In this document: in pieces, positions 2,358 through 62,928 of the stretch
How positions within the stretch are numbered: the stretch's first letter is position 1
Layout of the letters: the number at the start of each line of letters is the position of its first letter
Source: Candidatus Latescibacterota bacterium
GTDB lineage: Bacteria > Latescibacterota > UBA2968
NCBI GenBank assembly: GCA_965205975.1
Contig: OZ242195.1
Location: 3,862,656-3,926,655 of the forward strand
Length of the DNA: 64,000 nt
Direction of reading: 5' to 3'
Program-made: the position numbers and the translations under genes
Notes under the pieces: generated by a model
Told to the model about the DNA's origin: nothing
Databases searched by the model: none
What the model saw: the letters and a program-made list of their open reading frames with translations, nothing else

Positions 2358-2446
2358 CACTGGATCGCGGCTCAAGCATGCCCCTGCATGGTTTAAGCAG
2401 GGGACCATGCCGCGATGACGGGCGAGGCATGCCTCGCCCCTACAAT
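2358..2446. repeat. composite palindromic intergenic repeat (modules B+D+A)
   Basis: CTGGATCGCGGC...GCCGCGATGAC outer stem enclosing the CCCCTGCATGGTTTAAGCAGGGG hairpin, followed by the perfect palindrome GGGCGAGGCATGCCTCGCCC and then CTACA. The same modules recur about 25 times in the window. Confidence 0.85.
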
Positions 2447-2550
2447 GGATAACTGAACACTGACCGCTAAATATTCTTACATCCTCACACCCAAAATTTG
2501 GTATCTTAAAGCGTCCAAAACGCACTTTAACCATTACCGGGAGGAATATC

Positions 2551-3156
2551 TTGACCGAAGTCAAAGCCACCAACATCGTCTGGCACGAAGGCCATGTCGC
2601 GCGCAAACAGCGCGAAGACCTGCTCGAACAAAAAGGCGCACTCATCTGGCTCACCGGACTGCCCAGCTCGGGCAAAAGCACGATAGCATTCACCACAGAA
2701 CACGCCCTGATTGAACGCGGGCGCATGGCCTACGTACTCGACGGCGACAACATCCGCCATGGACTCAACAAAAACCTCGGATTCTCAGCCGAAGACCGCG
2801 CCGAAAACATCCGCCGCATCGGCGAAGTCGGCAAACTCTTTGCCGACACCGGCATCATCACCCTATCCAGCTTTGTAAGCCCCTATCGCACCGACCGCGA
2901 CGGCGTGCGCGAACTCATGGAAGACAAAAACTTCATCGAAGTATTCATCAACACCCCCCTCGACGTATGTGAAGAACGCGACCCAAAGGGCCTGTACAAA
3001 AAAGCGCGCACAGGTGAAATACCCAACTTCACCGGCATCTCTGACCCCTATGAACCGCCTGAAAATCCCGAACTCGTCATACACACCGTTGACAGCACCC
3101 CACAAGAGGCCGCATTGCAAATCATCGCCCTGCTCGAAACGCGCGGAAACATATAG
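2551..3156 (+). CDS. cysC: adenylyl-sulfate (APS) kinase
   Basis: P-loop LTGLPSSGKST and the APS kinase motifs YVLDGDNIRHGLNKNLGF and SFVSPY. TTG start with a GGGAGGA RBS. Confidence 0.9.
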   Translation: MTEVKATNIVWHEGHVARKQREDLLEQKGALIWLTGLPSSGKSTIAFTTEHALIERGRMAYVLDGDNIRHGLNKNLGFSAEDRAENIRRIGEVGKLFADTGIITLSSFVSPYRTDRDGVRELMEDKNFIEVFINTPLDVCEERDPKGLYKKARTGEIPNFTGISDPYEPPENPELVIHTVDSTPQEAALQIIALLETRGNI

Positions 3157-3161
3157 ACGAC

Positions 3162-3821
3162 ATGCCCATCATCGACCTCACCATGCCCATTGCCGACCAC
3201 TTTCGCTGGCCTGTTGAGCGCAGCCTCAAAAGCAGTTTTGAAACCGGCGACATGGCGCAAGTGACCCACATGGGATGGGCTGTCCACGGATTTACGCACG
3301 TCGATGCGCCGTGCCACATGTTCCCGGAAGGACCCACCACCAGCGACACCGAACTCGACCAAATCGTGGGACAGGCCGCAGTCGTCGATCTCTCGGGCAT
3401 CGCGCCGGAAACGCCGATCACCGAAGCGCAGATTCGCGCTGCCGGACAGCACATACGGTCTGGAGACATCGTCGTCATGAAAACGCGGTGGGACGAAATA
3501 GAATCGCATCAAACCCCCGAATTCTGGACCCGCGCGCCCTACATGTCGCGCCCCGCCGCAAAGTGGCTGCGCGCGCAAAACATCCGCGCCATAGCATTTG
3601 ACTTTCCGCAAGACTATCCCATACGCCAGTTGCTCAGTGGCGAGAGAGCACCCCTTTCCGAATTTGTAACCCACGACATCCTCTTGCGCGATGGCATCAT
3701 CCTCATCGAATACATCTGCAACACGGGCAGGATAGCTGCGGACCGCGTATCGTTCTTCGCCCTGCCCTTAAAAATCCCCGAAGCCGACGGCGCACCGGCT
3801 CGCGTCATCGCAATTCAATAA
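3162..3821 (+). CDS. cyclase family protein (kynurenine formamidase-like)
   Basis: HMGWAVHGFTHVDAPCHM is the cyclase-family HxGTHxDxPxH motif. About 219 aa. Confidence 0.75.
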   Translation: MPIIDLTMPIADHFRWPVERSLKSSFETGDMAQVTHMGWAVHGFTHVDAPCHMFPEGPTTSDTELDQIVGQAAVVDLSGIAPETPITEAQIRAAGQHIRSGDIVVMKTRWDEIESHQTPEFWTRAPYMSRPAAKWLRAQNIRAIAFDFPQDYPIRQLLSGERAPLSEFVTHDILLRDGIILIEYICNTGRIAADRVSFFALPLKIPEADGAPARVIAIQ

Positions 3822-3837
3822 CCCCTGGAAAATCACC

Positions 3838-5202
3838 ATGATCTACCACCAACTCTTCTCCCAAATTGACCGCACCGTACGCGTTGGCGTCATCGGCACC
3901 GGACACTACGCCACAGCCCTCATCACACAATCGCGCGTCGTCGATCAACTCCACGTACCCGTCGTCTGTGACACAAACCCTGACGCAGCCCAAAATGCAT
4001 ATCATCACGCCGGCCTGGACACCGACAAAACCATCATAGCCGACACCACCCAACAGGCAGCCAAAGCCATAGAACAGGGCAAACACGTCATCCTCACCGA
4101 CGCCATGCAAATGATGGACCTGCCCCTCGACGTCATCGTAGAATCCACGGGCGTCCCGAGTGCAGGCGCAAAACACGGCATAGAAGCCATACGACACGGC
4201 AAACACGTCGCCATGGTATCCAAAGAAACCGACGTCACCGTCGGACCCATCCTCAAACACCTCGCAGACAAAGCCGGACTCGTCTATACCGCTGTTGACG
4301 GCGACCAGCACGGCCTGCTCATGGGCCTTGTGCAATGGGCGCGCGGCCTGGGCCTCGAAGTACTCTGCGGAGGCAAATCACTGGACTCTGACCGCGTTTA
4401 CGACCCACAGACCAACGCCATCGTCTGGTCCAAAGGCAAAATCCAGATCCCCGACGAACAGATATTCTCCACCCAAAATCCCTCGGCCTACATCGCACAA
4501 CGCCGTCAAATCATGGGCGAACTCGGCGCCATCGCCGGTTACGACATCACCGAACTCACCATCGCCGCCAATGCCACCGGTCTCATCCCCGATATAGACA
4601 CCCTGCACACACCCGTAGTCCGCACCGTTGAAATACCCGAAGTCCTCGCACCCAGAGAAGACGGCGGCATCTTATCCCACCGCGGCGTCATCGACTGCGT
4701 CTCCTGCCTGCGCCAGGCAAATGAACCCGGCCTTGGCGGCGGCGTCTTCATCGTCATCGCCTGTGAAAACGCCTACTCCCGCCACATCCTCACCACCAAA
4801 GGACTCATCCCCAACAAAAAAGGCACCACAGCCCTCATCTACCGCCCCTATCACCTCTGCGGCGTTGAAACACCCATCACAACACTCGTCGCCGGCCTCT
4901 TAAACCTGCCCACGGGCACGACCGACTACCACCCATCCTTTGACGTTGTAGGCCGCGCAAAAGAACACCTCAAAGCCGGTGATCGGATCGGCAACGACCA
5001 CAGCAAAAACATCGAATACCTCATGCGCCCCGCGCTACCCGTCGCGCCCGACAACCCCCTCCCCTACCACATGGCCAACGGCAATACCCTCAGCCGGGAC
5101 ATCCCCGCTGGCACCTTCATCACAGCAAGCGCGATACAACCCAAAGACAACGACCCCCTCTGGACGCTTCGCAAAGAACAGGACGCGCATTTTCTAAAAT
5201 AA
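3838..5202 (+). CDS. NAD(P)-binding oxidoreductase, homoserine-dehydrogenase-like with a C-terminal SAF-like region (COG4091-type)
   Basis: N-terminal Rossmann motif VGVIGTGHYAT and a 454-aa architecture typical of predicted homoserine-dehydrogenase-like proteins. The family assignment is tentative. Confidence 0.5.
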   Translation: MIYHQLFSQIDRTVRVGVIGTGHYATALITQSRVVDQLHVPVVCDTNPDAAQNAYHHAGLDTDKTIIADTTQQAAKAIEQGKHVILTDAMQMMDLPLDVIVESTGVPSAGAKHGIEAIRHGKHVAMVSKETDVTVGPILKHLADKAGLVYTAVDGDQHGLLMGLVQWARGLGLEVLCGGKSLDSDRVYDPQTNAIVWSKGKIQIPDEQIFSTQNPSAYIAQRRQIMGELGAIAGYDITELTIAANATGLIPDIDTLHTPVVRTVEIPEVLAPREDGGILSHRGVIDCVSCLRQANEPGLGGGVFIVIACENAYSRHILTTKGLIPNKKGTTALIYRPYHLCGVETPITTLVAGLLNLPTGTTDYHPSFDVVGRAKEHLKAGDRIGNDHSKNIEYLMRPALPVAPDNPLPYHMANGNTLSRDIPAGTFITASAIQPKDNDPLWTLRKEQDAHFLK

Positions 5203-5243
5203 AAAAAACCGAGTACATCTTTGCAATGTACTCGGTTTTTCTC
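5201..5243. terminator. bidirectional Rho-independent terminator
   Basis: An A-tract, then the CCGAGTACAT / ATGTACTCGG stem, then TTTTTCTC. It sits between convergent genes (3838..5202 + and 5262..5849 -). Confidence 0.8.
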
Positions 5244-5261
5244 TAAATATTATCGACCTAC

Positions 5262-5849: not shown

Positions 5850-8530
5850 TATTGATCCTTCAAAAAACCCCGCAACACCGTATGCAAAATCCCCCCATTG
5901 CGATAATAATCGATCTCCACAGGCGTATCGATACGCACCGTTGCAGAAAACGACTTCACATTCCCATCCTCATCCGTCGCCGTCACCGTCACATCTTGCA
6001 AAGGCTGCAAATCATCGCTCAGCCCGGTAATGTCATACACCTCCCGCCCCGTAAGCCCCAGCGACTCGGCATTCTCCCCATCCACAAACTCCAGCGGCAA
6101 CACCCCCATACCCACCAGATTGCTGCGGTGAATGCGTTCAAAACTCTCCACAAGCACTGCGCGCACACCCAAAAGTAACGGACCCTTAGCCGCCCAATCG
6201 CGCGACGACCCCGAACCGTACTCCGCGCCCGCAATCACAATCGTCGGCACGCCCTCATCCACATACCGCATCGCCGCATCGTAAATACTCATCTGTTCAC
6301 CCGAAGGCAGATGCACCGTCACGCCGCCCTCTGTCCCTGGCGCCAGCGAATTGCGAATGCGAATATTCGCAAACGTACCCCGCATCATCACCTCGTGATT
6401 GCCCCGCCGCGAACCATAAGAATTGAAATCCTTTGGCTCAACCCCCTTTGAAATCAAAAACTGCCCCGCCGGACTATCCACCGCAATCGAACCCGCCGGA
6501 GAAATATGATCCGTCGTCACCGAATCGCCCAACCGCGCCAACACCCGCGCACCTCTAATATCTGTAATCGCGTCTAACTCCGGCGACAAATCCACAAAAA
6601 ACGGCGGCTCCTGCACATAAGTACTCTCCGCCTGCCACCCATAGAGATCTCCTTCTTGCCCGCCAACCGCATTCCACATCTCATTGCCTTCAAACACATT
6701 GCCGTAGCGCGCCTCAAACATATCCGGTTTGAGCGCCCTTGCAATCGTATCACCGATCTCATCCTGACTGGGCCAGAGATCGCGCAAAAACACCGCATTG
6801 CCATCCCCATCCAGCCCTATCGGCTCCGCAGTCAAATCCAAATCCACCCGCCCCGCCAGAGCATAAGCCACAACCAGCGGTGGCGACGCCAGATAATTCG
6901 CCTTCACATGCGGATGCACACGACCTTCAAAGTTGCGATTGCCACTCAACACCGACGCCGCCACCAGATCATCCTCGTGAATCGCGGCAACCACCGGATC
7001 GGGCAACGGCCCGCTATTTCCGATACACGTCGTACAACCATAACCCACCGTATGAAACCCGAGTTGCTCCAAATACGGCGTCAAACCCGCCTGATCGAGA
7101 TAATCCGACACCACGCGCGAACCCGGCGCCAGACTCGTCTTGACATGTGCGTGGACCTTCAAGCCCTTTTCCACCGCCTTCTTCGCCAACAAACCAGCGG
7201 CCACCATCACAGAGGGATTGCTCGTATTGGTACAACTCGTAATCGCCGCAATCACCACTGCCCCGTGCCCCAGCACGCCATTCATCCTCTTTTGAACCTC
7301 ATCATCATCCAGCCCAAAACCACTATTGCCCACCGGTGCGCGCAACGCGCCTTCAAACGCATCCTTCATCTGCTCCAGTGCAATGCGATCCTGCGGGCGT
7401 TTTGGACCCGCCAAGCTCGGCTCCACCGTACTCAAATCCAGTTCAAGCGTATCCGTAAACTGCGGCTCCGGCGTATCATCCGTTCGGAACAACCCCTGCT
7501 CCTTCGCGTACCGCTCAACCACATCCACCTCCGCCGCCGTGCGACCCGTGCGCGCCAAATAACGCAACGTCTCATCATCCACCGGGAAAAACCCCATCGT
7601 CGCCCCGTATTCCGGCGCCATATTGGCAATCGTCGCGCGATCAGCCAGCCCAATACCCGTCAACCCCGTACCGTAAAACTCGACAAACTTATCCACCACG
7701 CCCTTCTCGCGCAACATCTGAACCACCGTCAACGTCAAATCCGTCGCCGTCGTACCCTCGGGCAACTGCCCATCCAACTTGAACCCGACAACCTCGGGCG
7801 TCAGCATATAAATCGGCTGCCCCAGCATCACCGCCTCTGCCTCAATACCCCCCACACCCCAGCCCACCACACCCAGACCATTAATCATCGTCGTATGTGA
7901 ATCTGCCCCCACCAGACTATCGGGAAAAGCCACCCCATCCCGGGCAATAACCCCCTTTGCCAGATACTCGAGATTGACCTGATGCACAATACCCGTCAGC
8001 GGCGGCACCACCCTGAAACGCTCAAACGCATTGGCACCCCAGCGCAAAAACTCATACCGCTCCCGATTGCGATCAAACTCAATCTCTGCATTTCTGCGCA
8101 ACGCATCCGAATTTGCAAAACTATCCACCTGTACCGAATGATCCACCACCAGATCCACCGGAATCAACGGCTCAACGCGACTTGCATCGCCTCCCATACG
8201 CCCCATAGCCGAACGCAACGCCGCCAGATCCACCAGCGAAGGCACACCCGTAAAATCCTGCAACACAACCCGTGCAGGCTTAAACGGTATCTCTATCGGA
8301 TTGGGATCCGCCGCATTCCAATTCGCCAGCGTCCCCACATCTTCTTCGCGCACCTGATACCCATCCAAATTTCGCAGCGCCGCCTCGAGCAGCACCCGCA
8401 CGGAAAACGGCAAAGTCGATACTGCCCCAACCCCATCAACCTCCAACCGATCCAGCCGAAAAATTGCGAGATCACCCGCCATAGTAGAAAGTGTATCGCG
8501 CGAATTCAAAGGATTATGCGTTTGACTCAT
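5849..8530 (-). CDS. acnA: aconitate hydratase A
   Basis: 893 aa. Fe-S ligand regions ([20 protein letters not shown]) and aconitase family residues are present throughout. Confidence 0.95.
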
Positions 8531-8693
8531 AAACTGATTCCTCTTTTGATGTTATTCATTATCCAGATCGTACCGCTCTTTATACGCCATAAAAATACCC
8601 CCTATTAGTGGTTAATTAACAAGAGGTGATATACCAAATCTATGCGTATAAGTCAATAAAATCAACAAATTATTTGAATATCAAGCTTCAATG

Positions 8694-8927
8694 TCATGGA
8701 TCGCAAATAGGACGTTCTTTGTAATTGGGTGGCTCTCGAAAACCGCCCATAGCAACCTTACAAATCGGGAGAGACCCATCATCTTGAAGTATTCTAATCC
8801 TCTCTAAACAGAGTTCTTTAGAAGTATTGTCATATGGAGAAATTTTTAGAGGTCCTCCAGTTCTATGTAAAATCCAATACCACTTATCCATGTAATCATA
8901 GAAGTATATCGCTATGAATTCCAGCAT
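8694..8927 (-). CDS. hypothetical small protein in an AT-rich islet
   Basis: 77-aa ORF in a low-GC segment (about 8560-9520). No family recognised. Confidence 0.3.
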   Translation of the reverse strand: MLEFIAIYFYDYMDKWYWILHRTGGPLKISPYDNTSKELCLERIRILQDDGSLPICKVAMGGFREPPNYKERPICDP

Positions 8928-8942
8928 CTCTAACCTCCTTAT

Positions 8943-9161
8943 CTAAGGAAGCCACTTAATAAGTGCAACAATAACAGCAAGACCTCCAAATATCACTGTG
9001 AGCATCCATTTAGCGGAAATATCCATACGACTTGTCAGCTCACTTCGCATCTCTTTTATATCTTCCCGAATGCCTGAAACTTGCTCCTTGATGATCTCAA
9101 CATTGATCTCTACATCTCTTTCCAATTTAGTTAATCGGTGTTCTACCTCTTGATCATTCAT
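8943..9161 (-). CDS. small coiled-coil protein with a C-terminal TM helix (XhlA/hemolysin-like architecture)
   Basis: 72 aa. Heptad-rich N-terminus (LTKLERDVEINVEIIKEQVSGIREDIKEM) followed by the TM segment WMLTVIFGGLAVIVALI. It has the same architecture as ORFs 51408..51671 and 57490..57774. Confidence 0.5.
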   Translation of the reverse strand: MNDQEVEHRLTKLERDVEINVEIIKEQVSGIREDIKEMRSELTSRMDISAKWMLTVIFGGLAVIVALIKWLP

Positions 9162-9303
9162 TTGTTACTCCCCTTAGTGTGAAAAAGGTGCTGAATTATA
9201 TAAGGTAACGAAACCATTATACACTGTCAACACCTCCAACATCTTTAACCTATCTGACCGATAAAGGTTACTAAAGTATATCGTTCCCGTCGGATGATCG
9301 TCT

Positions 9304-9432
9304 TCAACGTACGCGCTCAAAGGCGGTATCATCTTCAGCAATGGTCTCTTCTTCTGTCCGGGATTCGACATGGTCAATGACCTCCTGGACGCGCTTCTGA
9401 TTCCAACCCTCGGGATATTTATTTTTATCCAT
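9304..9432 (-). CDS. small ORF (42 aa) with a conserved acidic C-terminus; possible TA-associated small protein
   Basis: MDKNKYPEGWNQKRVQEVIDHVESRTEEETIAEDDTAFERVR. It is not in the ORF track because it is under 60 aa. I prefer it over the overlapping 9174..9377 ORF, whose sequence is low-complexity. Confidence 0.3.
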   Translation of the reverse strand: MDKNKYPEGWNQKRVQEVIDHVESRTEEETIAEDDTAFERVR

Positions 9433-9644
9433 AGTTAAAGAAAAATACCACAACAACCCGTATTTTCAAACTCTTTTTGTACGCTTCGCACTTGATTGGA
9501 TTGGGAAGAATATATATTTTCTCTCGTTGCAGATTGTAAGGGCGAGGCATGCCTCGCCCCTACGGTTGCTTCACACTTCACGGACCCTCTTTTTTATTTG
9601 CATTCATCTGCGTTCATCTGCGTTCATCTGCGGATCACACTTCC

Positions 9645-11225
9645 ATGACCAACCAACGCTTTGTCGCACTCATCATCCTCGACGGCTGGGGATTAAACCC
9701 GCGCCGGGACCACAACGCCGTGGCCCTTGCCAGCACCCCGACAATGGACCGCATCTGGGCCAACTACGCCCACACCACCCTCAACACTTCGGGACGCGCA
9801 GTCGGACTACCCGACGGGTTAATGGGCAACTCCGAAGTCGGCCACCTCAACCTCGGTGCGGGACGCACCGTCATGCAAGCCATGACCCAGATCGACGACC
9901 GCATACGAGACGGCAGCCTGTACAAAAACGAAGCCTTAATCGCCGCCATAGACCGCATCAAAAACCACAACCGCAACCTCCACCTCATCGGCCTCGTCTC
10001 CGACGGCGGCGTACACTCATGGCCCGGACACTACGAGGGCCTCATCAAAATGGCAGCCGAGCGCGGCCTTCCCTCAAACCGCCTCTTCATCCACGCCTTC
10101 ACAGACGGACGCGACACACCGCCCCAAAGTGCAATCCACCGCATGCGCGAACTCCTCGCCATGTTCAAAACCCATGGCATTGGCCGCGTCGCATCCATAT
10201 CCGGGCGATATTACGCCATGGACCGCGACCACCGCTGGGAACGCACCCAAATAGCCTATGACCTCCTCACACAGGGCAAAGGCATCGCAGAAACCGACCC
10301 CATCACAGCCATACAAAACGCCTATAACAGGGGTGAAACCGACGAATTTATCAAACCCATCGCCATCGCCGGCAACCCCACCATAAAAGACGGAGACAGC
10401 GTCATCTTCTTCAACTTCCGCGGCGACAGACCCCGGCAACTCACCCGTGCCTTTACACTCAAAGACTTCGACGGCTTTCAACGCCATATCAGGCCCAGCG
10501 TACACTTCACCACCCTCACCCGATACGAAGCCGACGTACCCGTCACCGGCATCGCGTACCCCCCCGAAACCCTCTCGCAAAACATGCCCAACATCTGCGG
10601 ATCGGTCATCGCCCGGGCCAACAAACGACAACTACGCATCGCAGAAACAGAAAAATACGCCCACGTCACCTTCTTCTTCAACGGCCAACGGGAAACACCC
10701 TTTGACGGCGAAGAACGCATCCTCGTACCATCGCCCAAAGACGTCCCCACCTACGACCACAAACCCGAAATGAGCGCCTCTGAAATCGCAGACCGATTCA
10801 CAGAAGCCATTGCATCCAACCAATACGACGCCGCAATATGCAACTTTGCCAACCCCGACATGGTGGGCCACACCGGCATCCTCGAAGCCGCCATACAGGC
10901 CGTCACCACCGTTGACACCTGCCTGGACCGCGTCCTCAAAGCCATAGAAAACGCAAACGGCGCAGCCATCGTCACCGCTGACCACGGCAACGCCGAACAA
11001 ATGCTACATTACAACACCGGCGAACCCCACACCGCACACACCACCAACCCCGTACCCTTTGTACTCGTTGACCCCACCTACAAGGGAAAACTGCGCGACG
11101 GTGGCACCTTGCGCGACGTCGCCCCCACCCTGCTCGCCCTCCTCAACCTGCCAAAACCCGATGAAATGACTGGAAAGGATCTAAGGCAAAAGCAACCACC
11201 GATAAACACAGATGGACACAGATGA
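9645..11225 (+). CDS. gpmI: 2,3-bisphosphoglycerate-independent phosphoglycerate mutase
   Basis: LIILDGWG, GNSEVGHLNLGAGR, and the metal-binding TADHGN and GHTG motifs. The true start is M33 of the track ORF; the upstream extension is read through a repeat. The last ~10 codons (..NTDGHR) run into repeat module C. Confidence 0.92.
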   Translation: MTNQRFVALIILDGWGLNPRRDHNAVALASTPTMDRIWANYAHTTLNTSGRAVGLPDGLMGNSEVGHLNLGAGRTVMQAMTQIDDRIRDGSLYKNEALIAAIDRIKNHNRNLHLIGLVSDGGVHSWPGHYEGLIKMAAERGLPSNRLFIHAFTDGRDTPPQSAIHRMRELLAMFKTHGIGRVASISGRYYAMDRDHRWERTQIAYDLLTQGKGIAETDPITAIQNAYNRGETDEFIKPIAIAGNPTIKDGDSVIFFNFRGDRPRQLTRAFTLKDFDGFQRHIRPSVHFTTLTRYEADVPVTGIAYPPETLSQNMPNICGSVIARANKRQLRIAETEKYAHVTFFFNGQRETPFDGEERILVPSPKDVPTYDHKPEMSASEIADRFTEAIASNQYDAAICNFANPDMVGHTGILEAAIQAVTTVDTCLDRVLKAIENANGAAIVTADHGNAEQMLHYNTGEPHTAHTTNPVPFVLVDPTYKGKLRDGGTLRDVAPTLLALLNLPKPDEMTGKDLRQKQPPINTDGHR

Positions 11226-13562: not shown

Positions 13563-13569
13563 ACGATCT

Positions 13570-33922: not shown

Positions 33923-33925
33923 AAG

Positions 33926-42350: not shown

Positions 42351-42358
42351 AAAACGAA

Positions 42359-53545: not shown

Positions 53546-53589
53546 ATGACGGTGATGGATTATTGGCGTCAGGCTTCAGGGCAATCGCG

Positions 53590-54108: not shown

Positions 54109-54287
54109 AACGCGACGGCCGAGAAAATCCTGGATATAATATCCCGGATCGCGCCGACCTGCATTGCGCCCCTAACTTGAATGCAGGAATCACTTTGAGA
54201 GATACATATAAATGGAACGCGCTGGGCGTTAAGCGTGTAAGTTTTGATCTATGGAGGATGGGATATCGTGAAAAATATGTACCTTTA

Positions 54288-55844
54288 TCACTCCCGTGGA
54301 GAAAGATAGAGAATCGGCATTTTCTTGTTGATATATGCTTGCATCAACCTTTTTTTAAGCGCCCTCTCCCGCTCAAAATTGGCGATATGGTAGGCAATCT
54401 GTGGCCTCGTCCACTGCCAAAGACTATCCTTGTCGGGATTGTTATCGCGCGTCTCGTTCCACCACTGCTCGGTCCATCCCGTCACACTATAACTATAAGC
54501 CCCGATGAATTGCACCGTAACGGACCAAATCAACAAAGCACCAAACAGCACCCGCATGCGACGGTTGGCAACAACCCGCTCAATAATCGGAACCATCAAC
54601 AGCGCAAAAAATGGAACCGTATCCACAATAGACCGATAACCATAAGCCGAGCCGCCCCACCAATCGTACCACATAGACGCCACCAGAATCAGCAACACAG
54701 TCGCCACTTGCAGGGGAAGCAAAGGTCGGTAGCGAGAATCTCGCCACGCCAACACCGCGCCGACAACGCCGAACAACAGCACAGGAGAAAAGAAAACCAA
54801 CCCTCGCGACGGACTGATAAAAAGCCCCGGCAGGCTCTCCCACACGGGACTCTGCCAGAGATCGTCAGACCCCGTAGTCGCAAGCGCGATATTCTTCGAC
54901 GTAATGGTCTGCCCAAACTCGAGAATATTACCAAAGTAGTAGCCATTGTACGCTGCCAGGATAACGGCGAAAGGCACCCCCCCAAGCACAAAAGCAACGA
55001 ACCCGCGGCGATTCACCCACAACAAATACGCCCCCACGCAAACAACCACCACAGCACTCGTCGGACGGCACAAAACCGCCATGCCAAGAGCCGCACCACA
55101 ATAAGCCGCATAGCACTCTCGCACTGAGATACCAAACAAAAAATAAGCACCAAGACTTAAAAAAAACGTATTCGCCGGATGCTGCCAAAGTGCCTGACTG
55201 CTAATGGGCCACGCGCAACTGCCCAGCCCAAACGCCAGAGCCACCAGAAACGCAGGTATGGGCGCGACAAAGCGACGCGCCGACAAAAAAATGAACAACG
55301 TCGCAAATGCGACCAGCAAAGAAGCGGTCAAGGCACCGCCGTGCCACCACCAGTACCGATCGGATTCAACATCGACAAAAAAATCGAGAACCGCATAAAT
55401 CGGCAGCCCGACAACCGCCGATCCAATCCCAAAAGCGTTGACATACACATCGGGCCGCGTGGTCTGGGCAAGATAGTAGCCTCCTCTGGCTTTTAATTGG
55501 CCCTTCTCGTACAGATCATTGACCTCCTGATCCCAGGCGTTGACAGTGACACGAAGCGGATTCTCACCGGGCCGTTCCAGTGTCCATAAAAAAGCCCCCG
55601 GCGCATCTGGCGGACTGAGCGAAAAGGTGTTGCGCTTTAGCAGATTCACGCTAAGCAGCATATTGCCTTCCTGATCACCACCAGGGAGAAAATCGCCATT
55701 GCTCACGTACGCCCCAAAGCAACCGACGAACAGGAGAACCGGCAGAAAGTATTTCGACAAAGCCACTCTCCCCCCAGCCTGCGCAGTCGGCGTTGCGCCT
55801 GGTCTTTCGAGACGCGTCCTTCTCGTTTTCCTTCTTCTTGCCAT
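54288..55844 (-). CDS. GT-C-fold membrane glycosyltransferase (ArnT/PMT_2-like family)
   Basis: Polytopic, 518 aa from the ATG at M31 (MARRRKTRRTRLERPG...). Architecture is characteristic of GT-C glycosyltransferases. Its first ~12 codons and ~150 bp of upstream DNA are shared with the gene at 51743..53383. Confidence 0.55.
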   Translation of the reverse strand: MARRRKTRRTRLERPGATPTAQAGGRVALSKYFLPVLLFVGCFGAYVSNGDFLPGGDQEGNMLLSVNLLKRNTFSLSPPDAPGAFLWTLERPGENPLRVTVNAWDQEVNDLYEKGQLKARGGYYLAQTTRPDVYVNAFGIGSAVVGLPIYAVLDFFVDVESDRYWWWHGGALTASLLVAFATLFIFLSARRFVAPIPAFLVALAFGLGSCAWPISSQALWQHPANTFFLSLGAYFLFGISVRECYAAYCGAALGMAVLCRPTSAVVVVCVGAYLLWVNRRGFVAFVLGGVPFAVILAAYNGYYFGNILEFGQTITSKNIALATTGSDDLWQSPVWESLPGLFISPSRGLVFFSPVLLFGVVGAVLAWRDSRYRPLLPLQVATVLLILVASMWYDWWGGSAYGYRSIVDTVPFFALLMVPIIERVVANRRMRVLFGALLIWSVTVQFIGAYSYSVTGWTEQWWNETRDNNPDKDSLWQWTRPQIAYHIANFERERALKKRLMQAYINKKMPILYLSPRE

Positions 55845-56030
55845 TTCATCTCCGTGAGCGGAAAACTTACACCAATCTATAACCAATATAAAAAACAAAC
55901 GCCTCACGGGTCGGCAAAAAGACCTAAGAGGCACTTGAAGAAAGAGAGAACCTTCTGGATCGCGCGGGACGGCACGGGGCCTGCCCCGTAATGTCTCTAT
56001 ACGGGGACCGTCCCCTACTATGCCGTGATG
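55845..56030 (-). promoter_or_regulatory. duplicated leader/promoter cassette (copy 2) plus a B/A-type repeat
   Basis: CTCCGTGAGCGGAAAACTTACACCAATCTATAACCAATATAAAAAACAAACGCCTCACGGGTCGGCAAAAAGACCTAAGAGGC...CTTCTGGATCGCGCGGGACGGCACGGGGCC... Confidence 0.6.
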
Positions 56031-56135
56031 TCACAGATGACAAGCTGGGTATTGGTTCTTGATTTTCAGTCCCAGGTTTTATATTTTTTTCGCAACAATC
56101 TATATCTTCCAAACCATTATTAAAGGATTTTAGAC

Positions 56136-56387
56136 ATGAATAAAACGATAAAAACAAAAGTAACAGCCCAAGGGGTTTTGATCCCTCGGCAGTTGTTAGA
56201 AGGAATCGAAGAAGTGGAAATAAAAAAAGAAAATGATGTAATTACAATTATGCCGACGGGACAGATAAATTCCAACGGTAGCCGTTCACAGCTTGATCCC
56301 ATTTGGAATCTGGGAGAAAATCCAGTGGAATGTGATATTTCAGATGCTTCCGAACAGCATGACAAATATTTGTATGGAACATCTTGA
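56136..56387 (+). CDS. vapB: type II antitoxin VapB (AbrB/MazE-fold)
   Basis: 83 aa. It overlaps a downstream PIN-domain gene by 4 nt. AT-rich islet. Confidence 0.7.
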   Translation: MNKTIKTKVTAQGVLIPRQLLEGIEEVEIKKENDVITIMPTGQINSNGSRSQLDPIWNLGENPVECDISDASEQHDKYLYGTS

Positions 56388-56800
56388 TGAACTCAAATAT
56401 ATTCTTTCTTGATACAGGTTATCTCATTGCCCTTGAAGCTTCAAACGACAAAAATCATACACGCGCAAAAAATCATTGGCAAAATCTTATTCGCTCGCGC
56501 CCGTCTTTAGTGACCACTTCCTTTGTATTTGATGAAGCGGTCACTTTTTTTAACAGTCGAAATCGACATGATAAAGCAGTTGAAGTTGGCTCGCGTCTCT
56601 TGAACAGTCCTTCCATTCGGTTAATCCAGGTGGATGATTCTCTTTTTCGCAAAGGTTGGGAATATTTCGAGCAACATTCAGATAAGCTCTACTCTTTGAC
56701 AGATTGCATTTCATTTGTTGTCATGCAACAACAAAAAATTCAGACCGCCCTAACTTTTGATAGACACTTTACGCAAGCCAATTTTTTGACCATTCCCTAA
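56384..56800 (+). CDS. vapC: type II toxin VapC (PIN-domain ribonuclease)
   Basis: FLDTGYLIAL (first acidic residue) ... FVFDEAVTFF ... LTDCISFVVM ... FDRHF: the PIN acidic quartet pattern. 138 aa. Confidence 0.8.
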   Translation: MMNSNIFFLDTGYLIALEASNDKNHTRAKNHWQNLIRSRPSLVTTSFVFDEAVTFFNSRNRHDKAVEVGSRLLNSPSIRLIQVDDSLFRKGWEYFEQHSDKLYSLTDCISFVVMQQQKIQTALTFDRHFTQANFLTIP

Positions 56801-56880
56801 ATCTCCAGTGCTGTAACGTCAAGTCATCTTATGTCTTAATGTTTTAACTGCTCTCATCTCTTTTAAGCACTTCTCGACAC

Positions 56881-57040
56881 AGATCATTAGAACACATCTG
56901 CAAGTGGCAATTGCCAGCCGGGCACGACATCGCCGCCATCAATAAGACCCTCCTGTAAGAGAATGCGATTGATCAGTGTCTGATCATAGGCTAACCCACT
57001 CAATATCATCAGCCGACCCAAAATGTCAACCTTTCTTTAG
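56881..57040 (-). pseudogene. internal fragment of an Rpn-family gene fused to leader cassette copy 3
   Basis: 56930-57040 is about 85% identical to 53820-53940, which encodes ...MDAIMRE..LINRILLQEGL... It is followed upstream by leader copy 57041-57110 and a B repeat at 57111-57150. Confidence 0.5.
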
Positions 57041-57176
57041 CCGAGATAAAAAAATAAACGCCTCACGGGTCGGCAAAAAGACCTAAGAGGCACTTGAAGA
57101 AAGATAGAACCTTCTGGATCGCGGCTTTAATCATGCCGCGATGACAACAACAGCACAACGTCAATATCGCGCATTA

Positions 57177-57455
57177 TTATTTCAGCCCAACCTCTCGACG
57201 CAAGTCGTCAACGGATTGGGCGGGTTCTGTACCGGCTTTTGCTCGATTTAGCGCTGTTGCCAATCGTTCCGCATTTTTGGGTGAGCTGAGAAGATGAGCG
57301 GTTTCTATGAGACTGGCAAGCTCAGACGCAGAAATCAAAGCAACATCTTCATGCCCCGGACGGGTGATAATGACGTAATCACTGTCATCCGTCACATCTT
57401 TGCAGAGACTGGCGAGCCTATCGCGTGCCTGAGTATAGGAAAATGTTCTGGTCAT
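57177..57455 (-). CDS. yefM: Phd/YefM-family type II antitoxin (orphan; no toxin gene downstream)
   Basis: 92 aa: MTRTFSYTQARDRLASLCKDVTDDSDYVIITRPGHEDVALISASELASLIETAHL is the YefM fold signature. The position where a toxin gene would be expected downstream is occupied by a B-type repeat. Confidence 0.75.
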   Translation of the reverse strand: MTRTFSYTQARDRLASLCKDVTDDSDYVIITRPGHEDVALISASELASLIETAHLLSSPKNAERLATALNRAKAGTEPAQSVDDLRREVGLK

Positions 57456-57489
57456 ATTATTTGAAATATAAGGAATAACAAAGCCCGCC

Positions 57490-57774
57490 CTATTTGGGGA
57501 GATTCATCAAAATGGTAATTGACGTGCCGAAAATGGCGATCAGAACCGTCAAAAGAAGTCCAACCGTCCATTTTAAATGGCTGGTCATGCGGGTTTCTAT
57601 ACTGTTCAAACGGTTGTCCACACGGGTTGACAATTCGCGTTGGCTTTGCTCAATGCTGGTCATGCGAGCGTCCATGCTGGTCAAACGCTGCACGATCTGA
57701 TCAACAATCCCTTCTATTCGACTCATGCGCGTATCGATATCGGCCATTCTGCTTTCTGCTGACGGAAGCTGCAT
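57490..57774 (-). CDS. small coiled-coil protein with a C-terminal TM helix (paralog of 51408..51671)
   Basis: 94 aa taking the ATG at M6 (MQLPSAESRMADIDTRMSRIEGIVDQ...), then TM WTVGLLLTVLIAIFGTSITILM. Confidence 0.55.
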   Translation of the reverse strand: MQLPSAESRMADIDTRMSRIEGIVDQIVQRLTSMDARMTSIEQSQRELSTRVDNRLNSIETRMTSHLKWTVGLLLTVLIAIFGTSITILMNLPK

Positions 57775-57874
57775 TGTGTGTCCTATCATTTTCGAATGAT
57801 ACGTTTAAGCGCGCGGAACCTGGCCCCGTAGCTATAATATATTGAAGACGATGATAAATATGAAGGAAATCGCG

Positions 57875-58840
57875 TCACCCATCCAACGCTTGCTCAAATG
57901 CCTCAAGATTGGACACCTGGATCGCCGCACGGTGCAACTGCTTGAGACGTTGCAAATCATCAATCGCGGCAATGCGTTTGGATAGCGGGTGTGCTTCACG
58001 CAGGTCAAATCGAATCTCCAACACGTCGAGAATATCTTCAATCGCGCGTTGCCTGCCCCCTTGCTCAATACCTTGCTCAATACCTTGCTCAATACCCTGC
58101 TCAATACCTTGCTCAATACCTTGCTCAATACCCTGCTCAATACCTTGCTCAATACCTAATTGCTTGATGTATTGTGCAGACAATGATTCGCGCATAATGG
58201 CATCCATAAGACCCTCCTGTAATAGAATACGATTGATCAGTGTCGGATCATACGCTAACCCACTCAATATCATCAACCTGCCTAAAAAGTCAACCTTTAT
58301 TGATTCATCCACCGGCAGCGCATTCGTCGCGTCAACACAGTGACGCAGCCACGCCTCTGAATCTATGCCAGACGGACGCTTCATCAACGGCACGAACGGA
58401 AACAAGCCCGAAGGTCCACCATCAAGAATATCCTGTCCCTCTATTTCACTCAGCCGAATCACGCTATATTTGATCACAGCAAGATGGCCGGACATTTTAT
58501 GAATAAAGTGCCCCGGATCGCGCCGACCTGCATTGCGTCGCAAGTAGATCACACTGGAATAAATCGGCAGGTTGTGCTGCTCTATCGCACGTATCATATA
58601 GCCCGCCATGCGCAGCGGCATAGACGGATCGTCAGTGGTTTGAAACTCCGTATGGATCAACGCCTCCTCACCTGCGATAAGGACGCGGATAAGGCTGTCC
58701 ATGTGTCGTGTTTCAACGGTGTTTTGCTCTGTGTCGAGGATGTCGAGGACTTCTACATCGTCCTGTCCGAATGTGAGGCGGATGAAGTCTTTGGGGTAGG
58801 TTTGGATGAGGTCTTTAGAGATGGTGTCATATTCGGCCAT
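57875..58840 (-). CDS. Rpn-family recombination-promoting nuclease / putative transposase (YhgA-like), with an internal (GIEQ)x8 repeat
   Basis: 321 aa. N-terminal PD-(D/E)XK-like region (DSLIRVLIAGEEALIHTEFQ), a C-terminal DUF4351-like region, and a 12-bp in-frame tandem repeat at ~58040-58140. Confidence 0.7.
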   Translation of the reverse strand: MAEYDTISKDLIQTYPKDFIRLTFGQDDVEVLDILDTEQNTVETRHMDSLIRVLIAGEEALIHTEFQTTDDPSMPLRMAGYMIRAIEQHNLPIYSSVIYLRRNAGRRDPGHFIHKMSGHLAVIKYSVIRLSEIEGQDILDGGPSGLFPFVPLMKRPSGIDSEAWLRHCVDATNALPVDESIKVDFLGRLMILSGLAYDPTLINRILLQEGLMDAIMRESLSAQYIKQLGIEQGIEQGIEQGIEQGIEQGIEQGIEQGIEQGGRQRAIEDILDVLEIRFDLREAHPLSKRIAAIDDLQRLKQLHRAAIQVSNLEAFEQALDG

Positions 58841-59732: not shown

Positions 59733-59966
59733 TTAGATGAGGGAATTAGATACAATATCGAATATAAAAGTCTCGAACCTCAAATCTCGTATATTTAGAT
59801 TTTTGCAACCCTGCAATAACACGAGCCAACACATATTGACGGCAATTGCAAAATACTCTGTCTCGTTACTCCGAACAACAGGAACAAGGTCAGTCACAAA
59901 AATAAGCAGATGTTTACGGATTCCAATTTCATCTTGAGCAAGAATACAGGTGCCCGCTAATCCCAT
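59733..59966 (-). CDS. small ORF downstream of the second Panacea-domain gene; N-terminally homologous to 21624..21989 (candidate toxin, possibly truncated)
   Basis: MGLAGTCILAQDEIGIRKHLLIFVTDLV aligns with MSLAGECYLFEDGGGYHLHIFLTDYL. 77 aa. It overlaps the Panacea gene stop by 10 nt. Confidence 0.4.
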   Translation of the reverse strand: MGLAGTCILAQDEIGIRKHLLIFVTDLVPVVRSNETEYFAIAVNMCWLVLLQGCKNLNIRDLRFETFIFDIVSNSLI

Positions 59967-60661
59967 GCATGTCCAATCATTTTTTCAAAATCCGCTCTGA
60001 TAGCCAAATCTTCTCGTATATCCAATATATCATCCTCATCCCATCCAACAGCACGCAACCAATTATTCCACTCAATAGGTCGAGCAGTGTTACCCGTATC
60101 TTCATACTCTGCCAATTTGTGCGTCTGTTGAGATATTTCATGAAAAGACATATGTCCAACTTCTTCTATCACTTTGTTGATATATTCCATATTCGCTTCA
60201 GACAACGCACCTGTACCAACTTCAACATCTCGCAACTTTACAAGATGTTTGGTATCAAGCCCCCAAAATACCTTATTCCAATACCTACCATTGCCTTCTT
60301 TTATCAATCTATATGTACAGCTCAATAACGGTCCAAACTTCATATTACAAGGACGATCAAAAGTGATGGGATAACCGCGGTCCTCCAGAGACTTTCGATC
60401 TATCAAATAGATTATCTTGAGCAATTTGCCCATATCCATCTTATTGTTAAATTTCTTTACCAATAAGGCAGCAACCTGCACTGTTTTTCTCTCATCAAAA
60501 TCAGGAAGTTTCAAGTCGTCAACGTGAGAGGACCGTAATGTTGCCAGACTCGTTGGACAAGATTCGAGGTAACACCAGTGTACAGGGTTCCGTTGCGTTT
60601 GCTCGCCATGATATATACGCAGGGTTGGTTCATTCCTTAAATATTCTGGATCGCGGCTCAA
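59957..60661 (-). CDS. Panacea-domain (DUF4065, PanA-like antitoxin) protein, paralog 2
   Basis: MGKLLKIIYLIDRKSLEDRGYPITFDRPCNMKFGPLLSCTYRL aligns along its length with 21992..22570. AT-rich islet. The start is uncertain. Confidence 0.65.
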   Translation of the reverse strand: MSRDPEYLRNEPTLRIYHGEQTQRNPVHWCYLESCPTSLATLRSSHVDDLKLPDFDERKTVQVAALLVKKFNNKMDMGKLLKIIYLIDRKSLEDRGYPITFDRPCNMKFGPLLSCTYRLIKEGNGRYWNKVFWGLDTKHLVKLRDVEVGTGALSEANMEYINKVIEEVGHMSFHEISQQTHKLAEYEDTGNTARPIEWNNWLRAVGWDEDDILDIREDLAIRADFEKMIGHAWD

Positions 60662-60965
60662 CTACATAGCCTGCCCCGTAGTGATTCTATACGGGGCCGC
60701 GATGACGAGTGCCACCGCATAGGCATGTGTCGTAATAGCCTGCTCTGGAATGTTTTAATCCAGAGATTCTATACGGCAGGCTTTGCTCGACACCTCTGGA
60801 TTAATGAATTCATTAAAAATAATGAAGTATAAACAGACAAAAAGCAAGCGGAAATAGTCTGTCCCCTTTATTAACACCTCAAGGGACAGATAAAACCTTC
60901 TGGATCGCGGCTCAAGCATGTCCCTGCATGGTGTTGAGCAGGGAACCCATACCGCGATGACGGCG
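60641..60965. repeat. two B/D-type composite palindromic repeats flanking an AT-rich spacer
   Basis: TTCTGGATCGCGGCTCAACTACATAGCCTGCCCCGTAGTGATTCTATACGGGGCCGCGATGAC and CTTCTGGATCGCGGCTCAAGCATGTCCCTGCATGGTGTTGAGCAGGGAACCCATACCGCGATGAC. Confidence 0.85.
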
Positions 60966-61077
60966 GTACCCTCTTCTCCCTTCACACTTCATTCTTCTCC
61001 CTTCTCTTGACAGCCCGCGCGTCGCATCGTATCATTAAACCCGTATTCACGCAACCCATAACCTCAGGAGAATCGCT

Positions 61078-62019: not shown

Positions 62020-62020
62020 G

Positions 62021-62105
62021 GCGCGAATAGACGAATCAACGAATAGACGAATCAACGAATAGACGAATCAACGAATAGACGAATCAACGAATAGACGAAT
62101 CGGCG
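62021..62105. repeat. 16-bp tandem repeat (ACGAATAGACGAATCA) x5
   Basis: CGAATAGACGAATCAACGAATAGACGAATCAACGAATAGACGAATCAACGAATAGACGAATCAACGAATAGACGAATCGGCGAACAGAC. Confidence 0.9.
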
Positions 62106-62112
62106 AACAGAC

Positions 62113-62153
62113 AAAAAAAGCGGAAGACGCAAACACGTCTTCCGCTTTTTTTC
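62113..62153. terminator. bidirectional Rho-independent terminator
   Basis: AAAAAAAGCGGAAGACG-CAAACA-CGTCTTCCGCTTTTTTTC, sitting between the convergent FGE and rplI genes. Confidence 0.85.
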
Positions 62154-62179
62154 ACACTTCCTACTTCACACTTCACACT

Positions 62180-62623
62180 TCACTCTCTAACCACCCACAC
62201 CTTCACAGACACCACAACCCCTGCATAAAGCCGAATGGGCACATCATATACCCCCAGTGCTCGAATCGGCTCTTCAAGCTCTATGTCTCGGCGATCAATA
62301 TCGAACCCCAGATCACTGAGCGCAGCTGCTATTTGCTGTGCCGTCACCGATCCAAAAATGCGATCCTCTTCGCCAGCCTTAACCGCCACATTGCACGAAA
62401 CCTCTTTCAAAGCCTCTGCCAGCGACTCGGCACCGCGCGTTTCACGCGCGCGTTGGGCTTCGCGTTGCTGGCGCACCTTCTCGTACACCGCCATATTTTG
62501 CTCATTTGCAATCAGCGCCACCGAACGAGGCAGCAAAAAATTTCGCGCATAGCCATCCTTCACCTCAACCACATCGCCAGCATTGCCCAGCGCATCCACA
62601 TCTGCTGTAAGAATAATTTTCAT
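62180..62623 (-). CDS. rplI: 50S ribosomal protein L9
   Basis: MKIILTADVDALGNAGDVVEVKDGYARNFLLP is the L9 N-domain signature. The ATG is at M12 of the track ORF. Confidence 0.9.
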   Translation of the reverse strand: MKIILTADVDALGNAGDVVEVKDGYARNFLLPRSVALIANEQNMAVYEKVRQQREAQRARETRGAESLAEALKEVSCNVAVKAGEEDRIFGSVTAQQIAAALSDLGFDIDRRDIELEEPIRALGVYDVPIRLYAGVVVSVKVWVVRE

Positions 62624-62676
62624 AATATATTCCCGGAATATTAAGCGGGCGGGCACGGAGGCACCGCCCCTACAAT

Positions 62677-62928
62677 CTAACGAATCGAATCATTCACATA
62701 AGGCATAAGCGCGAGGAAGCGGGCGTGCTTAATCGCGCGCACCAATGCGCGCTGCCCCTTTGCACACGTACCCGTCATACGCCGGGGAACAATTTTCCCG
62801 CGCTCGGTAACAAACCGGCGCAACAAACGCTCATTCTTATAATGAACATCCAAACGGTGTGCTTCAAAATGGCAGGCCCCTGTATGACCCTCGCAAATAT
62901 GGCAAACCTTCACTCGTCCTCTATTCAT
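62677..62928 (-). CDS. rpsR: 30S ribosomal protein S18
   Basis: ...[50 protein letters not shown]. Confidence 0.9.

Follow-up and report, generated by a model that had tools for sequence, protein, structure and literature searches.

Co-oriented REP-type hairpins and their mosaic arrangement in the intergenic DNA of a Latescibacterota bacterium

The DNA analyzed in this study (the window) is a 64,000-nt stretch from a Candidatus Latescibacterota bacterium (assembly GCA_965205975.1, contig OZ242195.1, forward-strand positions 3,862,656 to 3,926,655), whose intergenic regions are crowded with short repeated hairpins. The genes are ordinary chromosomal genes, including those for aconitase, iPGM, three sulfatases, an FGE-type sulfatase-modifying enzyme, ribosomal proteins S6 and L9, toxin-antitoxin pairs, and two very large proteins that bear type IX secretion tails. 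On the minus strand, 30803-37536 is taken up by a complete pupylation-proteasome operon, mpa-dop-pup-prcB-prcA-pafA. About 50 modules of four types were found, namely 19 copies of A, 13 of B, 6 of D, and 12 of C. A preliminary description of this DNA had counted about 25 copies of a single modular palindromic family; that number was too low, and A, B, and D proved to be three separate classes of tagged hairpins, with C being a tandem oligonucleotide array. The description also overlooked that every copy of A, B, and D is on a single strand, while the genes lie on both.

Copies of A were located with a covariance model built from 12 window copies and run over the whole window with filters off, and B, D, and C were counted in a regular-expression census. 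All four modules were present, each within 10 nt of the place first assigned to it, and an unbiased repeat search recovered direct-repeat families matching all of them. The exact 20-mer of A, GGGCGAGGCATGCCTCGCCC, occurs five times against none expected in 100 shuffles of the window, and D at three or fewer mismatches occurs twice, again with none expected; the motifs are thus more frequent than composition predicts. All 19 copies of A are located outside open reading frames (ORFs) or at ORF edges, and related contigs carry more copies. The high density noted earlier was confirmed: A by itself reaches about 0.3 copies per kb, compared with about 0.13 per kb for the 584 repetitive extragenic palindromes (REPs) of E. 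coli K-12 (PMC3333891). It was too strong to say that almost every intergenic gap carries a module, as about 19 of 34 gaps of at least 30 nt do (the count was made from an ORF-based gene list and stood at 19 of 35 until one gap proved spurious), and modules are absent from the gaps between 12.9 and 25.4 kb. A scan of the whole window against Rfam gave no family match at the gathering score, and a tRNA scan of the window found nothing.

Read on the minus strand, module A has the form 5'-ATT-GTAG-[7-10 bp GC-rich stem, loop of 0-7 nt]-GTC. Its foot tag is seen on the plus strand as CTAC, 3' of the hairpin, in 19 of 19 copies; the constant CTACA claimed in the preliminary description holds only for these four bases, since the next base is A in just 14 of the 19. 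DNA folding of A and B is well beyond that of shuffled controls (z from -3.2 to -4.8 overall, and from -3.2 to -4.2 for A), with D being weaker. Position -1 is C in 14 of the 19 A copies, and A often adjoins the GATGAC end of B, which hints at a possible preferred target beside GAC/GTC.

Class I copies of A, built on the perfect 20-nt palindrome followed by CTAC on the plus strand, have their tag on the minus strand at 2420-2443 (abutting the GATGAC end of B; fold -9.9 kcal/mol, z -4.2), 9540-9563 (nearly two-sided, with the 5' flank GTAA, in the divergent gap upstream of iPGM and common to the relative L023), 25463-25486 (27 nt past the stop codon of a plus-strand sulfatase gene), 32282-32305 (inside the operon, at the prcA/pafA junction), 37677-37700, and 40005-40028 (immediately following a C module). 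Most of the sites first listed as perfect palindromes are so, but the one at 32282 has one stem mismatch (CGCTC), and two positions had to be shifted, from 37676 to 37677 and from 40003 to 40005. Class II copies, also on the minus strand, lie at 11322-11355 (with an 8-nt internal duplication relative to L023), 27279-27304 (stem GGGCGGGT/ACCCGCCC, abutting B; fold z -3.2), 28087-28111 (GGGCGACC/GGTCGCCC, abutting B), 30620-30645 (the top model score, 46.4 bits), and 32310-32334, and the covariance model matched a further one at 30032-30057 (GGGACGGC/GCCGTCCC). Other minus-strand copies are those at 30665-30690 and 53506-53531 (model matches that the B census places within the B copies at 30654-30733 and 53495-53550), 35823-35847 (inside the operon, at the mpa/dop junction), 40168-40191 (a model match with an AT-rich inner stem, GGGCGTAAAA/TTTTACGCCC), 55966-56018 (within the B at 55955-56032 and with a variant of D in its own loop, a triple nesting), and 62647-62673 (adjoining rplI). 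The model match at 42322-42349 is fully two-sided (GTAG-hairpin-CTAC), has one stem mismatch, and was assigned to neither strand. GTAG tags of A provide TAG stop codons at 30803, 32331, and 37697; as read from the sequence, the second ends the minus-strand gene 32331-33122, through the copy at 32310-32334, and the third ends the gene 37697-38632, through the copy at 37677-37700.

The compensatory changes first proposed for the A stems were tested on 45 copies from the window and related contigs. In this alignment, which was fitted to the structure model and so favors pairing somewhat, 98.4% of pair cells were paired, and the value fell to 49-64% when the partner was slid by one to three columns. 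Four of the seven pairs covary, with changes on both sides, and 46 double-change cells were found against 11.2 +/- 2.4 in shuffles, none of 500 shuffles reaching 46. A few G-U pairs take part. Stem variants such as CGAGG/CCTCG, CGGGT/ACCCG, CGACC/GGTCG, ACGGC/GCCGT, CAACC/GGTTG, and CGTAA/TTACG are legible directly.

Module B reads 5'-(C/T)GTC-ATCGCGGC-[9-10 nt loop]-GCCGCGAT-CCAG on the minus strand. The tag (the reverse complement of GATGAC[G/A]) is CGTC in seven and TGTC in five of the 12 intact 3' ends, and the thirteenth copy (55955-56032) ends in GATGTC. The stem ATCGCGGC/GCCGCGAT is 8 bp long and starts with AT, the tail CCAG (CTGG on the plus strand) is present in all 13 copies, and there is a conserved additional 5' flank, AAAACCTT. 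By a metagenome pattern search, the exact B element was seen only in this lineage. All window copies are on the minus strand. Simple ones lie at 11251-11282 (32 nt), 27246-27278, 28054-28086, 29996-30027 (fold -11.7 kcal/mol, z -4.8), and 57114-57145 (in a repeat unit of about 110 nt), and others at 34205-34236 (the dop/pup junction) and 51314-51345 (with a compensated stem change, GCGGG/CCCGC). The remaining copies enclose other hairpins: D at 2360-2419 (composite fold -26.8 kcal/mol, z -4.2) and 60900-60961, the variant D' at 60646-60706, A at 53495-53550 (belonging to the 110-nt unit), both A and D at 30654-30733 (also seen by folding), and, at 55955-56032, where the 3' arm is degenerate, an A that encloses D' (also recovered by the repeat search).

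Module D is a 7-bp hairpin, CCCCTGC...GCAGGGG or, in D', CCCCGTA...TACGGGG, preceded by CCTG or CATG. We know of no described counterpart. All but one of its copies are inserted in loops of B or A. On the plus strand they were found at 2381-2403 (GCATG before it) and 30701-30723 (within B), both by mismatch search and census, at 60922-60943 (within B, with a stem one bp shorter; census and comparison with relatives), and, free-standing, at 28020-28043 (GCCTG before it; weak fold, z -1.3). D' was found by census in the loop of A at 55984-56006 and in the loop of B at 60674-60696.

Strand counts in the window were 20:1 for CCCCTAC, 17:0 for the 5' arm of B, and 12:0 for its 3' arm. The CTAC tail is on the plus strand in all 19 A copies, two of which are nearly or fully two-sided, and the 13 B and six D copies are likewise co-oriented; minus-strand matches of the model were only echoes of palindromic A copies. 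The composition of the strands is itself extremely asymmetric, with an overall GC skew of -0.22. Read on the plus strand, GC skew at third codon positions (GC3) was -0.53 in plus-strand genes and -0.44 in minus-strand genes, and the corresponding AT skew (AT3) was +0.35 and +0.52. The skew is present in genes of both orientations, so the asymmetry belongs to the DNA strand and not to transcription; this is a replication-type pattern. The G/T-rich minus strand, which is always the tagged strand of the elements (D being the CCTG/CATG-tagged class), holds 65% of the coding DNA, as a leading strand would. From skew and gene orientation we infer that it is the leading strand, that is, the lagging-strand template.

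The same relation was found in relatives. The exact B pattern matched 46 metagenome stretches, of which about 27, on contigs with 46-57% GC and strong skew, carry the real element; the other 19 or so, on high-GC soil contigs, were set aside as chance or coding matches. In the set formed by the window, these approximately 27 stretches, and three loci of OX638329.1 (the 6.5-Mb chromosome of an uncultured Latescibacteria), the tail of A was on the C/A-rich strand 39 times and on the G/T-rich strand twice, and B 49 times and twice. With the window excluded, contigs agreeing and disagreeing with their skew numbered 13:0 for A and 24:2 for B. Module orientation tracked the sign of the skew in 28 further contigs of the lineage, where the skew has the same magnitude and either sign. 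At 0.53 and 0.80 Mb of OX638329.1 a positive skew goes with elements on the minus strand; at 5.73 Mb both are reversed, as expected of two replichores. D was co-oriented with B wherever both were seen, in the six window copies and, as D', in four further contigs (L172, L174, L176, and L178). The polarity goes beyond composition in that the stems are self-complementary and the loops of D and of class II A are G- or G/T-rich on the C/A-rich strand.

Comparison with relatives revealed turnover of whole modules. The window is collinear with OX638329.1 over 7328-15330 (88-94% identity) and, in other parts, with the short metagenome contigs L145 and L151 (85-91%), which marks it as a segment of a Latescibacterota chromosome. 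Orthologous gaps differ by entire modules in L023, L145, and L151, although the flanking genes are 85-94% identical. Upstream of iPGM, L023 has two additional A copies and half a B where the window has C; after iPGM, the window has two C modules missing in L023, which has B where the window has C. The B upstream of the FGE-sulfatase gene contains D in the window and has an intact loop in L145, where the ortholog of the B at 60900-60961 has no D. At the dop/pup junction the window has one bare B; L151 has a tandem duplication of it there and, after it, an A with no counterpart in the window. No target duplication was visible when filled and empty sites were compared. Modules are also nested: D or D' sits in the loop of B at 2381, 30701, 60674, and 60922, A sits inside B at 30665 and 53506, and D' lies in A in B at 55955-56032. 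Neighboring units stand head-to-tail. Larger differences were seen as well. The low-GC segment of 880 nt at 8561-9440 contains three small ORFs on the minus strand (8694-9377), of which the one scanned gave no Pfam match. It is missing at the orthologous site of OX638329.1 and looks like a recent insertion. In L145, about 390 nt take the place of 59734-60997, a segment that includes a Panacea gene.

The commonest form of A was also found far outside the lineage. The exact 24-mer GGGCGAGGCATGCCTCGCCCCTAC occurs in at least 118 stretches from at least 92 species-representative genomes, against a chance expectation of about 0.004 in 596 Gb by our own arithmetic. By record titles, the hosts fall into about 20 phylum-level groups among the matches listed, including Pseudomonadota, Actinomycetota, Chloroflexota, Acidobacteriota, Bacteroidota, Bacillota, Cyanobacteriota, Planctomycetota, Verrucomicrobiota, Deinococcota, Gemmatimonadota, Desulfobacterota, and others. 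Isolates (Erwinia rhapontici 1SR and Pelotalea chapellei DSM 13688) and closed chromosomes are represented. The flanks of the 24-mer are unrelated across genomes, which makes the hairpin itself the shared unit. Elsewhere it usually forms a two-sided 28-nt palindrome or an inverted doublet with a sister hairpin (GGGCCGGGCATGCCCGGCCC, GGGTCGGGCATGCCCGACCC, or GGGCGACGCATGCGTCGCCC) built on the common scaffold GGGNNNNGGCATGCCNNNNCCC. It was also present in 19 viral-contig stretches, none of which contains a Y1 gene; a plasmid search with the 30-nt two-sided REP gave no match, and a literature search with the REP sequence or its translated peptides found no paper containing them. Only four or five stem positions are free, so a very widespread scaffold could give rise to the same variant repeatedly; why the scaffold itself is conserved would still need explaining.

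The preliminary description had likened the modules to REPs and to bacterial interspersed mosaic elements (BIMEs) or miniature inverted-repeat transposable elements (MITEs). Of these analogies only that with REPs stands. A GTAG tag at the palindrome foot is the defining mark of REPs associated with RAYTs, the REP-associated tyrosine transposases (PMC2817692; PMC3333891), and a GTAG superfamily of REPs has been defined (PMC3733652). By every sequence criterion A is a member of it: an unpaired GT[AG]G foot, a covarying stem within the family range of 6-13 bp and with a short loop, and dispersed, mostly extragenic copies, 19 in 64 kb. Published GTAG REPs (Nunvar 2010; Di Nocera 2013) likewise have a 5' GTAG beside a GC-rich stem of 7-10 bp with a short loop, form subfamilies by compensated stem changes, are extragenic and of high copy number, and sometimes supply a TAG stop with their tag. 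The central GCATGC of A recalls the P. putida REP TGTGGGAGCGGGCATGCCCGCGAA. They differ from A in being mostly head-to-head or tail-to-tail dimers, rarely head-to-tail (PMC3733652), whereas A is single or head-to-tail and co-oriented; they are also RAYT-associated, with Latescibacterota not among the listed hosts, and no RAYT was identified for A.

REPs of the second, CGTC-tagged type have the tag CGTC or TGTC (or CCTC), a stem of 8-9 bp nearly always starting with A and T, the tail CCA, and a loop of 4-5 nt, with a few families having other loop lengths (PMC3733652). B shares tag, stem, and tail with them (Di Nocera 2013; Neisseria dRS3 and Rickettsia RPE-4/6 are among them) and on sequence grounds is a long-loop variant. 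Its loop of 9-10 nt, which is a landing site for other hairpins, its flank AAAACCTT, and its polarity, with no head-to-head pairs, set it apart. REP doublets forming hairpins (REPINs) and BIMEs, as in E. coli and Pseudomonas, resemble the window in being built of REPs, in their mosaic intergenic clusters, and in their presumed mobilization by RAYTs; they need two inverted REPs or alternating clusters, however, and the window has no inverted pairs, every copy being co-oriented. MITEs have IS-derived terminal inverted repeats and a target-site duplication and usually measure 50-500 bp, whereas the units here are simple hairpins of 24-33 nt with no terminal inverted repeats beyond the hairpin and, as noted, no target duplication.

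Elements of the IS200/IS605 family (IS608, ISDra2) resemble those of the window in their subterminal hairpins, which bear a short guide or tag on the 5' side, in a fork-directed orientation bias (PMC3971601), and, on the reading proposed below, in moving as single strands. They are autonomous and 0.7-2 kb long with a tnpA gene, whereas the window elements have no gene. Elhai and colleagues reportedly described in 2008 (Genome Research), from Nostocales cyanobacteria, small dispersed repeats and heptamer arrays of short tandemly repeated repetitive (STRR) sequences, with elements about 24 nt long inserting into one another and into tandem oligonucleotide arrays to give mosaic intergenic regions. 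The likeness to the window lies in the mosaic insertion; the sequences and the phylum are other, and to our knowledge neither GTAG or CGTC tags nor replication polarity have been described for them. The kind of element, a REP, is therefore already known; what is new is the strict replication polarity in three hairpin classes, the head-to-tail and nested layout, the phylum, and the identity of the main REP across phyla.

We consider it reasonably likely that this intergenic DNA has been colonized by at least three classes of small non-autonomous REP-type elements, moved in trans by a Y1/RAYT enzyme acting on the lagging-strand template. In E. coli, TnpA-REP is known to bind REP DNA in single-stranded form and to cut it on the 5'-GTAG strand, and for IS608 and ISDra2 the lagging-strand template is the site of both excision and insertion (PMC3333891; PMC6006769). 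Copies of IS200 and IS200/IS605 are oriented along fork movement in many chromosomes through insertion into that template (PMC3971601; PMC3333891). In the lineage studied here, the tags GTAG and CGTC are carried by the G/T-rich strand, which we take for the template of the lagging strand. A RAYT/IS200-type Y1 HUH enzyme, with its gene elsewhere in the genome, would cut and join the elements as single-stranded DNA, and transposition would take place at the replication fork, by analogy with IS608 and ISDra2; insertion at the fork would fix the orientation of each new copy. The nesting of D in B, and of D' in A in B, also favors this reading, the loop of an extruded hairpin being single-stranded. 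Some copies have probably been put to secondary use by the host, as with the three TAG stops and the several copies in the proteasome operon, where REPs stand at three junctions (mpa/dop, dop/pup, and prcA/pafA) and RNA hairpins in the mpa-dop-pup-prcBA-pafA transcript could affect mRNA stability.

Several observations weigh against this proposal. The enzyme would have to be encoded outside the DNA covered here. As first stated, there is no transposase gene in the window: in Pfam and NCBIfam scans of 38 of its ORFs the sole near match was a sub-threshold Rpn-family nuclease, and phmmer queries with RayT of E. coli and a Y1 protein from Opitutales, run against all ORFs of the window and of 184 loci (about 1.2 Mb), returned only the Opitutales gene itself. 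That gene was rejected as a candidate, being unrelated and flanked by other inverted repeats. Two large protein searches gave only close relatives of the queries (Enterobacteriaceae or Verrucomicrobiota), and no Y1_Tnp gene was found in the window or the lineage loci. No replication origin lies within the window. The three composites of A in B involve one A subtype at one position, two of them in the duplicated unit of about 110 nt; they may derive from one event, and there may therefore have been fewer nesting events than copies. Outside the lineage, the same REP occurs mostly as inverted doublets or two-sided palindromes with no clear polarity.

The composition of the tags raises a further difficulty. 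CTACAAT, GATGAC, and the flanks of B are A/C-rich, so part of the polarity could come from the extreme skew. One may suppose that hairpins were inserted in either orientation, or as two-sided elements, and that mutation bias then eroded those G/T-rich tags that the C/A-rich strand carried. Part of the polarity could indeed stem from asymmetric decay of two-sided elements, given a GC3 skew of -0.44 to -0.53, the frequency of two-sided 28-nt palindromes in other phyla, and the equal polarity of other A/C-rich tandem motifs (19:0 and 17:0), and the 5' flanks of the hairpins at 9540 (GTAA, at 9536) and 25463 (GCAG, at 25459) resemble decayed GTAG. Most 5' flanks of A, however, read GAC, CAC, or CGC, which the favored changes could not have produced from GTAG; the flanks and loops of B and D are asymmetric, the D loops being G/T-rich on the C/A-rich strand and yet co-oriented with B; and the model search yielded no reverse-oriented hairpin with a decayed tag. 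As an explanation of the polarity as a whole, erosion appears very unlikely. A role as polar sites of chromosome architecture, that is, replication-oriented protein-binding motifs in the manner of KOPS, Chi, or the BIMEs that bind gyrase and IHF, has slightly more to commend it but is still quite unlikely. It would fit the near-absolute co-orientation with a replication-type skew in many contigs, and REPs and BIMEs are reported to bind several proteins (PMC2817692). The polarity is nonetheless common to three unrelated hairpin classes, the spacing is irregular, clustered, and nested, with none in 12.9-25.4 kb, the set of copies changes from one close relative to another, and in other phyla the identical 24-mer forms inverted doublets that show no polarity.

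Of the rival explanations, the one we regard as least improbable, though still unlikely, is that the hairpins are mainly host RNA elements (3'-end stabilizers, terminators, or processing barriers within operons) kept by selection, and not mobile DNA. The stem covariation, which includes a few G-U pairs, speaks for it, as do the many copies past stop codons or at the mpa/dop, dop/pup, and prcA/pafA junctions, a placement in which REPs have been reported elsewhere (PMC3733652). Against this, the copies keep to one strand while genes occupy both, so that their orientation is independent of transcription, and about half of the divergent gaps contain A or B (four of eight, one gap being spurious). 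The hairpins are flanked by CTACAAT on one strand and GTC on the other and are followed by no T-run on either. Bidirectional intrinsic terminators (A-run, GC hairpin, T-run) are found separately at about 5205-5243, 40097-40137, and 62113-62152, so the genome has canonical terminators of its own. Given the occupied divergent gaps, the missing T-runs, and the separate terminators, a primary role in termination is unlikely, and the gain and loss of whole modules between relatives, together with the nesting, favor mobility. That the modules might be an assembly artefact confined to this window, or chance low-complexity matches, we judge to be already refuted, with nothing found in its favor: no matches are expected in shuffles, and the same modules occur at orthologous positions in independently assembled genomes and in metagenome contigs.

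The mosaic intergenic DNA also holds module C and other short tandem arrays, which are features distinct from the hairpins. C consists of two to four tandem units, mostly three, of CAGATGAAC(A/G) behind GCAACCA or GATCCG, with a period of 10 nt, or 8 nt in two copies. It occurs on both strands without polarity, and in about eight of ten cases lies over, or 4-14 nt past, the stop codon of the upstream gene and in the sense of that gene. Copies on the minus strand are at 708-729 (two units, downstream of the minus-strand gene 766-1236), 9603-9636 (type 2, three units, 14 nt upstream of the iPGM start codon; missing in L023), 11382-11416 (type 1, right past the stop of a minus-strand sulfatase gene; B in L023), 30761-30795 (type 1, right past the pafA stop codon), 35855-35897 (type 2, four units, at the mpa stop codon), and 40195-40226 (type 2, at the stop codon of gene 40226-42352). 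Those on the plus strand, all type 1, are at 11192-11225 (overlapping the 3' end and stop codon of iPGM; missing in L023), 27972-28006 (providing the TGA stop of gene 27339-27995), 29924-29958 (right past the stop of an ABC transporter gene), and 39966-40000 (antisense and upstream of the start of gene 38934-39947, an exception to the gene-end placement). A cluster of three, also on the plus strand, spans 51160-51290, with an 8-nt period at 51160-51188 and 51262-51290, type 1 at 51205-51239, and AAGGC tandem repeats between them. In most copies the units bring a TGA or TAA into each of the three frames, but a reading of C as a three-frame stop cassette fails at 35855 and 40195 and for that reason was not relied on.

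Among the other arrays, CTTCACA repeats (TTCACACTTC) are strand-polar in the lineage (19:0) and often immediately follow class I A, and AAGGC/AAAGGC repeats are polar too (17:0). Sites of these repeats lie at 690-720, 9567-9582, 28112-28130, 34240-34290, 40030-40045, 60975-61000, and 62150-62185, and at 51140-51380. Long tandem arrays of 8-nt units (CGAATAGA/CGAATCAA; CGAATCTA; and TTCGTCTA in the opposite sense) flank rpsF...rplI at 62024-62115, 63340-63415, and 63434-63510. At 38675-38893, between two minus-strand genes, a 56-nt unit is present four times in tandem (97-98% identical); its fold is not significant.

The genes themselves showed further features. The Pup-like protein of the proteasome operon has 63 aa and ends in ...TGE. 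Three successive large minus-strand ORFs of 708, 1228, and 1470 aa occupy 40226-50528; the two scanned against Pfam, those of 708 and 1228 aa, contain FlgD-Ig domains and type IX secretion C-terminal sorting domains, and internal repeats are common to 42400-43075 and 46160-46832. Region 53420-58441 contains the paralogous genes 53590-54108 and 57875-58840 and a fragment, 56939-57037, with the sub-threshold match to the Rpn-family nuclease (TIGR01784, 31 bits against a cut-off of 52); each lies near a copy of the repeat unit of about 110 nt, which comprises a terminator-like hairpin and a composite of B and A. Gene 57875-58840 contains nine in-frame 12-nt repeats (58035-58178). Genes of the toxin-antitoxin type were seen at 56136-57455 and 59733-60661. 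They encode a PIN-domain protein, whose gene is preceded by a small ORF, a Phd/YefM antitoxin, and a protein with a SocA/Panacea domain.

The spread of REPs is still called poorly understood (PMC8266576). The model of single-stranded integration into the lagging-strand template is based on the biochemistry of one E. coli enzyme and on the analogy with IS608. In most genomes studied any strand preference is hidden, because REPs are paired there in opposite orientations. The REPs of this lineage are single, polar, nested, and polymorphic, and the skew can be read from a 1-kb contig, which makes the model testable by genome comparison. The finding of one identical REP in many phyla raises a separate question about the inheritance of REP sequences and their enzymes. 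REP sequences are usually viewed as species-specific and vertically inherited. We offer only tentatively, and as a whole regard as doubtful, the joint claim that the lineage provides the first natural genome-scale evidence of fork-linked, strand-specific REP integration, in three classes and at a step missing from models of REP dissemination, and that its main REP belongs to the scaffold GTAG-GGGNNNNG-GCATGC-CNNNNCCC, copies of which are base-identical in at least 92 species from about 20 phylum-level groups. If true, the identity across phyla would mean either a very old and conserved recognition code between enzyme and hairpin or repeated transfer between phyla, and either outcome would oppose the species-specific, vertical view of REP inheritance.

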